64,000 bases of DNA from Escherichia coli (GTDB taxonomy: Bacteria; Pseudomonadota; Gammaproteobacteria; Enterobacterales; Enterobacteriaceae). The stretch lies in the NCBI RefSeq assembly GCF_045037415.1, contig NZ_CP173438.1; one strand, written 5' to 3'. This document shows positions 3,354 through 3,696 of the stretch, in pieces; position 1 is the first letter of the stretch, and every line of letters begins with the position of its first letter. The translations under genes and the position numbers were made by a program. The notes beneath the pieces are model-generated. The model was given only the letters and a program-made list of their open reading frames with translations. It had not been told where the DNA came from and made no database searches.

Positions 3354-3354
3354 A

Positions 3355-3400
3355 AAGAATAAAAAAATCCCGCAGTGATCGCGGACAGGAACTGCGGGAG
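3355..3400 (-). terminator. Rho-independent terminator-like hairpin (minus-strand sense) in the I-J spacer
   Basis: Inverted repeat cccgcagt/actgcggg; on the minus strand it is followed by a T-rich run. Confidence 0.4.
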
Positions 3401-3696
3401 AGTTACGAAGATTAAGTGTAAGGAATTATTCTTATATCACGACAAAAAAATTAACGCAGAGAAATTATACGCGCCACAGTCAGTTTGTGAAAATGTGAAG
3501 ATATTCAGAATTTTTATGCCATTACCGGTTTTAACCAACAGGATTATCGGTGGGCATGAAAGAAAACCCCGGTATCTGCTGATACCGGGGTTTCTCTTTA
3601 GCATGGCAGAAATGTGTTTCATGCTTTTCGGGCGAAGGATATCCGACTTCTGTACGGAATGGCAAGTGGCGGTTAATTTATTCAGGGGAAGGCTGT

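Follow-up and report, generated by a model that had tools for sequence, protein, structure and literature searches.

The window analysed here, a stretch of 64,000 nucleotides of Escherichia coli DNA (contig NZ_CP173438.1, assembly GCF_045037415.1), contains prophage tail genes in the same order as in phage lambda. The stop codon of gene I (at 3353) and the start codon of gene J (at 3697) are separated by a spacer of 343 bp (3354-3696). In lambda the corresponding junction measures 60 bp, with I ending at 15444 and J starting at 15505. The GC content of the spacer falls to 0.375-0.45 compared to 0.56-0.63 in the flanks. On near-identical DNA, RefSeq labels the genes on both sides of the spacer as "tail assembly protein" and "gpJ". 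A sequence-only reading of the stretch had described an AT-rich insert of about 340 bp at a junction where lambda J follows I almost directly, and both statements agree with these measurements. The features of the locus are summarized in Table 1.

Table 1. Features at the junction of tail genes I and J in the window.
Feature	Coordinates	Strand	Remarks
Tail assembly gene I	2673..3353	+	Upstream neighbour of the insert; start in RefSeq relatives ~99 nt later
pasB-family sRNA gene, window-type allele	3361..3457	-	Predicted ~97-nt primary transcript; from alignment with E2348/69 PP6
Intrinsic terminator	3361..3399	-	Stem 3399-3391/3376-3368, 14-nt loop, U7 tail 3367-3361
Body region UCCUUACACUUAAUCUUCGUAACUCU	3400..3424	-	Between ARN motif and terminator; likely base-pairing region
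(AAN)3 motif AAG-AAU-AAU	3425..3433	-	Directly 5' of UCCUU; candidate Hfq distal-face (ARN) site
Sigma-70 promoter	3464..3491	-	-35 TTCACA 3491-3486, 16-nt spacer, -10 TATAAT 3469-3464
"Long" upstream module, 188 nt, non-coding	3509..3696		Between pasB promoter and J start
Perfect 13-bp palindrome, 4-nt loop	3564..3593		U-rich tails: UUUCUCUUU on the plus, UUUUCUUUC on the minus strand
Second, weaker hairpin AGCATG...CATGCT, then TTTT	3600..3628	+	Read from the sequence; 8-bp stem in 141-nt variants
Tail-tip/host-specificity gene J	3697..7170	+	Downstream neighbour of the insert; frameshifted in the window

Two inverted repeats were found in the spacer at the places given by the sequence-only reading. 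The first (3368-3376/3391-3399) matches at 9/9 nt around a 14-nt loop and is followed by seven T residues (3367-3361) on the minus strand only. The second (3564-3576/3581-3593) is perfect at 13/13 nt around a 4-nt loop. A strong terminator on the minus strand had been proposed, and the one terminator called by the consensus scan is indeed the first stem with its T7 run. Taken from the single sequence, such counts were weak, as the scan yielded 1 terminator versus 0.6 expected and 3 promoter-like sites versus 1.0 expected. The frame 3437..3721 on the minus strand had been taken for the only sizeable open reading frame of the insert; this was wrong, a plus-strand frame of 113 amino acids (3375..3716) also spans the spacer.

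On the minus strand, about 90 nt upstream of the terminator, the consensus scan found a promoter of the form TTCACA-16-TATAAT with 11/12 consensus matches. Its -10 element predicts a transcription start near G3457. The U7 tail of the resulting RNA ends 8 nt past the stop codon of I, and the ~97-nt sRNA holds no usable open reading frame. A minus-strand transcript had been expected at 3400-3650; this range was corrected to about 3457 to 3361. The palindrome lies upstream of the sRNA promoter and is not part of the RNA. The conservation of the hairpins across related I-J junctions, proposed earlier as a point of comparison, was then analysed. A 38-mer around the promoter was almost unvarying across 26 alleles. 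Using 125 loci sampled by the promoter alone, the terminator 22-mer was exact in 119 and differed in the loop only in the other 6, while the stem CCCGCAG/CTGCGGG and its U-run were kept in 125/125. Covariation in the sRNA terminator is not possible with a stem that is invariant across the alleles. The conservation across loci was decisive for regarding the sRNA unit as real beyond chance. No Rfam family matched the spacer at E-values up to 1 or the spacer within the window at gathering thresholds. The unit carries the marks of a moron: it splits two genes adjacent in lambda, has its own promoter and terminator, and deviates in base composition.

A homologous RNA has been described experimentally. 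PasB is an 83-nt Hfq-dependent sRNA of prophage PP6 of EPEC E2348/69 (PMC8550237, Table S6), encoded at NC_011601.1 1466343..1466261 (minus strand), in the gap separating E2348C_1436 from E2348C_1437 (PMC8550237). In RefSeq these two genes are a tail assembly protein and gpJ. The stretch of the window homologous to the reported 83 nt runs from 3443 to 3361, and the published PasB Northern probe AATCCCGCAGTGATCGCGGAGCT matches the window at 20/23 positions (3362-3381). Comparing both sequences, the promoters are near-identical, the last 25 nt are identical and 64 of the 89 aligned columns match; without this 3' stretch, the identity of the body is ~61%. The distance to the I stop codon is equal in both loci, and intermediate alleles, for example in phage PhiR12_1, bridge the window and the EPEC bodies. 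In E2348/69, PasB ends at the last U of the terminator tail. The published 5' end is a coverage estimate (PMC8550237) located 15 nt downstream of the start predicted from the -10 element, which leaves the primary 5' end uncertain. Judged by the shared I-J position, promoter, 3' half of the terminator and distance to the I stop codon, the window feature is a pasB locus and a family member by descent. The PasB family as such is already known; it was described in 2021 and surveyed in 2026. The sequence-only reading had preferred a small antisense RNA, or a tiny moron read against the tail operon, over a protein gene. Of this, the small minus-strand RNA stood, in the form of the PasB-homologous unit from 3491 to 3361, while the term "antisense" is appropriate just for the stretch of the late transcript between the two cistrons. 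Overall, the original observation was confirmed and its small-RNA interpretation is supported.

The RNA predicted from the window contains two elements known from class II Hfq-binding sRNAs, an ARN repeat and a U-rich terminator tail, both of them conserved and both recognized as motifs. The terminator U-tail is a likely candidate for the Hfq proximal-face site. The A-rich block reads AAG-AAU-AAU in the window versus AAC-AAA-AAC-AAC in EPEC, and an alignment of 12 alleles showed invariant A positions with substitutions at every third (N) position. AAN with a variable third position is the pattern of the ARN motif bound by the distal face of Hfq. At least three AAN repeats were present in 9 of 10 representative alleles, and 3.8% of the shuffled window bodies reached 3 or more. 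The conserved UCCUU in the CU-rich part of the sRNA body is complementary to a Shine-Dalgarno sequence. Folding of the window RNA predicted a long and largely unstructured 5' part ahead of the terminator hairpin. Between the ARN motif and the terminator, ensemble folding of the window allele gave mixed per-base unpaired probabilities (about 0.1 to 1.0), so that this stretch is predicted to be partly single-stranded, with the same spread over the first ~58 nt of the sRNA. The consensus fold of 12 alleles retained the terminator stem only and left 3400..3424 wholly unpaired.

IMG/VR was scanned with the terminator and with the promoter. This yielded ~140 loci and, together with loci fetched earlier, 26 distinct alleles. 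With 61 loci the window type was the commonest in this IMG/VR-based sample, which also contained 24 loci with PasB-2, 16 with E2348 PasB, and a shorter type. PasB-2 is the C27A variant of Zhu et al. 2026 (bioRxiv 10.64898/2026.05.13.724894), and according to that survey PasB variants differ by a few nucleotides only. The survey employed the E2348/69 sequence as query against E. coli genomes with a word size of 28 and a query coverage of >75%; a relaxed search left out Escherichia and Shigella (Zhu et al. 2026). Using blastn at word size 28, the E2348/69 PasB query gave zero hits in the window, and at word size 11 just 25 nt of the window aligned to PasB. From the null result at word size 28 it follows that the window-type allele is probably absent from the published survey. 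Among 5,426 complete E. coli genomes, matches to the window-type sRNA were found in 799 (~15%; 612 records at >=99%), to the E2348-type sRNA in 955 and to the I-J spacer region (window 3300-3760) in 1,733. Among the matches listed for these genomes no feature was annotated under either sRNA query. Carriers of the window type include human isolates such as ATCC 25922. Near-window alleles also occur in induced or sequenced phages, namely PhiR5_1 (97.8%) and, at ~94%, Stx1a and Stx2c phages and JLK-2012. In a scan of 100,044 species representatives, the only matches to the terminator 22-mer were in E. albertii and on one Collinsella MAG contig, which is probably mis-binned. What is new here is a widespread allele whose body has diverged and whose seed probably differs; the published search settings miss it.

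The second new aspect is that the locus is assembled from exchangeable units: the upstream module, the promoter, the sRNA body and the terminator. In other prophages the long module is replaced by a shorter one, which measures 85-86 nt or roughly 100 nt. Typing of the modules over about 125 loci assigned the window-type body to 47 loci with the long and 6 with the short module, and the E2348-like body to 28 loci with the long and 36 with the short module. As module and body types are found in all four combinations, both recombine as units that are joined at the conserved promoter. The long module also occurs in variants of 187 nt, due to 1-nt indels, and of 141 nt, due to a 47-nt deletion. The latter was observed in two loci (L090, L116), where the deletion (equivalent to 3563-3609) takes out exactly the palindrome, is flanked by AGAAA direct repeats, and gives rise to a plus-strand hairpin of 8 bp, GCATGAAA...TTTCATGC, with TTTT after it. 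In two further loci, one with an IS3-family insertion (L079) and one with a deletion reaching into mid-J (L007), the long module is broken at the equivalent of ~3541, directly after ...CCAACAGGA.

With its flanks, the palindrome forms a hairpin of -29.8 kcal/mol on the plus and -27.2 kcal/mol on the minus strand. Its shape and position suggest a bidirectional intrinsic terminator that borders the sRNA unit on the upstream side; the consensus scan called no terminator at the palindrome. At its place, the short modules contain a different plus-strand hairpin, CAGGCA(C/U)CC...GG(G/A)UGCCUG followed by UUGUUUUU. In this hairpin 98.6% of the cells are paired, one pair changes from C-G to U-A via U-G, and the G-U variants are compatible with the plus strand only. 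The covariation was not significant, as 63 of 500 shuffles scored as high with the 7 sequences available. A terminator-like plus-strand hairpin was always present between pasB and J in the sampled loci. Most likely the palindrome acts as a terminator and shields J and the sRNA promoter against read-through of polymerase not modified by Q; we regard this as the least certain step of the interpretation.

Data on expression and targets exist for the EPEC allele. PasB gave a Northern band at the predicted size, its stability depends on Hfq, and it was more abundant in overnight static LB cultures (PMC8550237). In an hfq deletion pasB changed with a log2 fold change of -6.8 under activating and -2.4 under non-activating conditions (PMC8550237). 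PasB is reported among the most abundant prophage sRNAs of EPEC. It participated in 37 RIL-seq interactions, and at least 98.7% of its chimeras had it in the second position (PMC8550237). The "accessory-genome fraction" of Table S5 of that study disagrees with the rows of its Table S3 and was left unused here. The top partner, with 774 fragments, derives from the plus strand at 743482-743611 (PMC8550237 Table S3). Relative to the class II holin gene of prophage PP2, this interval of NC_011601.1 (L150 2483-2612) is situated 100-230 nt upstream, and the partner RNA partly overlaps pasA in antisense. The available text of PMC8550237 and of Zhu et al. 2026 does not mention a link of PasB to the PP2 lysis cassette. 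The equivalent region of PP5 contributed 54 PasB fragments (PMC8550237). Other partners are E2348C_2648, the napF 5'UTR, map and the nlpD-rpoS intergenic region, as well as hflX, fabR, bfpB, tolC and ftsZ (PMC8550237).

According to Zhu et al. 2026, the seed of PasB is predicted to lie immediately 5' of the terminator. At this position E2348 PasB contains UUGUCUGUC, which forms a 9-bp helix with GACAGACAG in the top partner. The position of the helix fits the predicted seed site, and from this one helix we propose UUGUCUGUC as the PasB seed. The window allele has CGUAACUCUC at the corresponding place and hence does not share the proposed seed of E2348/69 PasB. Whole-molecule duplex prediction gave unrealistic duplexes with long loops; a search for contiguous helices was used instead. 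For the window allele and the PP2 leader, the longest contiguous helix was 9 bp including 2 G-U pairs, located elsewhere in the RNA, and the predicted duplex energy was -22.8 versus -40.0 kcal/mol for E2348 PasB. For the holin leader from the window's own prophage lineage (AZ146), contiguous matches to the window allele did not exceed 7 bp. The idea that sRNA alleles are matched to holin leaders was unsupported. Because the terminator-adjacent region, the proposed seed site of PasB, differs, the window allele probably controls a target set different from that of EPEC PasB. We infer that the lysogen produces the window RNA as a trans-acting sRNA that depends on Hfq; transcription, Hfq binding and target pairing are all transferred from the E2348/69 allele, with its ~61% identical body.

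The prophage in the window appears to be defective. Compared to an intact J from locus L074, the window J lacks one nucleotide near 4568 and has an additional T near 5097, and the homologous J frames are open between the positions of both indels. RefSeq marks gpJ as "frameshifted" in near-identical genomes, without the extra T at 5097. The window prophage probably cannot make a tail tip, and the sRNA gene is kept with an intact promoter. In L074 (IMG/VR UViG 2579778666_000009) a sodC gene (Pfam Sod_Cu, E = 8e-32) occupies positions 5281-5808 at the I-J junction. It is equipped with its own terminator and followed by a window-type pasB, both antisense to the tail operon. As L074 holds sodC together with a window-type pasB there, the I-J junction behaves as a moron site.

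Further features of the window were recorded in their own right. A defence-type reverse transcriptase (12619-13995, minus strand; PADLOC RT_UG17, E = 8e-159) and an overlapping gene for a SLATT two-transmembrane effector (13967-14671, minus strand; RTasSLATT, E = 2e-57) look like a DRT system (12619-14671) at the right end of the prophage. A gene for a macro-domain protein (11011-11913; Pfam Macro, E = 6e-19) lies between the gene of a 1008-aa tail fibre and the tail fibre assembly gene, an unusual position for cargo. The tail fibre assembly region also contains Rfam IS009 (12265-12463, 218 bits), and IS009 is described as typical of the flanks of PasB (Zhu et al. 2026). In the chromosomal part, the SraC/RyeA and SdsR/RyeB pair and a cspA-type thermoregulator leader were found at Rfam gathering level (44870-45014 and 60502-60962).

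We consider it very probable that the spacer is a moron carrying a pasB-allele sRNA, antisense to the late operon and acting in trans via Hfq. A self-contained unit of promoter, RNA and terminator would have been inserted between I and J and would be read against the late operon. By analogy with the EPEC homologue, the lysogen would produce the sRNA on its own, mostly in stationary phase, and Hfq would bind and stabilise it. Again following the EPEC homologue, it would base-pair in trans with leaders and coding regions of host and prophage mRNAs, and its diverged terminator-adjacent region would probably direct it to targets different from those of EPEC PasB. The palindrome module would serve as a terminator overridden by Q-modified polymerase, insulating the sRNA promoter and J.

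Several other interpretations were weighed against this one. The sRNA might act mainly in cis and lower or uncouple J, lom and stf by transcriptional interference or RNase III cleavage. Transcription of the sRNA does run towards that of the late operon, the sRNA is fully complementary to the I-J intercistronic RNA, pasB lies at the I-J junction in essentially all loci, its synteny is reported as the most conserved among the Pas sRNAs (Zhu et al. 2026), and the terminator-like plus-strand hairpin always separates it from J. Nevertheless, the RNA stops 8 nt short of the I coding sequence and lies 240 nt off the J ribosome-binding site and, overlapping neither, cannot directly block translation of I or J. 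Moreover, the listed RIL-seq partners in EPEC come from other loci (PMC8550237), the sRNA gene was retained with its full promoter in a lineage with a frameshifted J, and sodC separates pasB from J in L074. A mainly cis-acting sRNA therefore appears quite unlikely, although cis action is compatible with trans action of the same RNA, and one need not exclude the other. The long module (3509-3696) might also encode a second minus-strand RNA of ~72 nt, with the palindrome (3593-3564) and UUUUCUUUC as its terminator. A promoter-like site, TTGCCA-18-TATCCT (3665-3636), was called at 9/12 matches, the predicted fold of the candidate has two hairpins and a U-rich tail (-32.2 kcal/mol), and the long module is very well conserved. 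However, a 9/12 promoter is at chance level (3 found versus 1.0 expected), the module is too uniform for its conservation to be informative, the palindrome is lost in two loci, and the whole module is absent from E2348/69, the source of the transcript data. We regard a second RNA as unlikely.

That the spacer encodes a small protein, from the frame of 94 amino acids (3437..3721, minus strand) or that of 113 (3375..3716, plus strand), or a type I toxin-like peptide, is extremely improbable. Both long frames exist, some phage records annotate hypothetical proteins in the spacer, and E2348-type alleles possess a plus-strand frame of 22 amino acids, MKINVKELFLLLGQKNTNAAKL. Neither long frame had a Pfam hit, however, both are frameshifted by natural 1-nt indels and the 47-nt deletion, and the swap to the short module removes most of both in E2348/69. 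The ATG of the 22-aa frame is ACG in the window allele, the frame is absent from other alleles, and no small open reading frame conserved across the four allele types was found. A type I toxin-antitoxin pair was rejected, given the lack of a conserved small frame and the loss of the 22-aa start in the window. The spacer could finally be inert filler with hairpins that only terminate or stabilise the tail-operon mRNA, in line with the common occurrence of hairpins at cistron ends and with the weak shuffle statistics of the single sequence. This is highly improbable, as the first hairpin is followed by a U-run on just the minus strand, a near-consensus promoter has been preserved at constant spacing to this hairpin, and the homologous transcript was detected experimentally (PMC8550237). 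The trans-acting, Hfq-dependent pasB-allele sRNA remained the preferred interpretation.

PasB has so far been surveyed with the EPEC sequence as sole query. Counting in the window type nearly doubles the known spread of the pasB locus (799 beside 955 genomes). If the diverged body shifts the targets, strains would differ in post-transcriptional control according to the allele in the tail region of their prophage. Such allele-dependent control would apply even in defective prophages, as with the frameshifted J of the window. A fixed promoter and terminator around a variable body also provide a natural experiment for locating the seed. A broader proposal combines an sRNA "cassette" at the I-J junction with swapped body and module, a regulon unlike that of EPEC PasB, cross-talk in lysis, and the second RNA; taken jointly, these points are possible, and on balance doubtful. 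If true, promoter and terminator of the cassette would be fixed, while the base-pairing body and the upstream module would be swapped independently. Since the dominant partner of EPEC PasB is the holin-gene leader of another prophage, the PasB family may tune prophage lysis cassettes in trans, with cross-talk between co-resident prophages. The long module may then contribute a second small RNA.

Comparing the window sRNA with known systems, PasA, PasC, PasD, AgvB and AsxR are likewise short Hfq-binding sRNAs of lambdoid prophages, which the lysogen produces from promoters of their own and which end at intrinsic terminators. AgvB and AsxR are anti-sRNAs (Tree et al. 2014, PMC4104026). In contrast to the window sRNA in the tail region, the genes of these five RNAs occupy the moron site downstream of Q and PR', by the lysis genes, and they have zero sequence similarity to it. 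An identity with AgvB or AsxR was rejected, as RF02702 and RF02703 had no match in the window and the location is the tail region and not the PR' site. ChiX and MgrR, reportedly examples of class II Hfq-dependent sRNAs, share with the window sRNA, at the level of sequence motifs, the combination of an ARN repeat for the distal face and a terminator U-tail for the proximal face of Hfq. The lambdoid morons, of which lom and bor in lambda are said to be examples, resemble the window unit in being autonomous arrangements of promoter, gene and terminator with deviant composition, expressed from the prophage and placed between genes that are nearly adjacent in lambda. In the tail region, classic morons code for proteins and mostly use the strand of the operon, whereas the cargo of the window unit is non-coding and antisense. 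The closest relative is PasB of E2348/69. It shares with the window sRNA the I/gpJ junction of a lambdoid prophage, the strand, nearly the same promoter, the length class, the identical 3' half of the terminator with its U7 tail, and the A-rich ARN block with UCCUU. It differs in the ~61% identical body with UUGUCUGUC instead of CGUAACUCUC beside the terminator, in a terminator loop that is 3 nt longer in the window, and in the upstream module, which measures 86 nt in E2348/69 versus 188 nt with the palindrome in the window.
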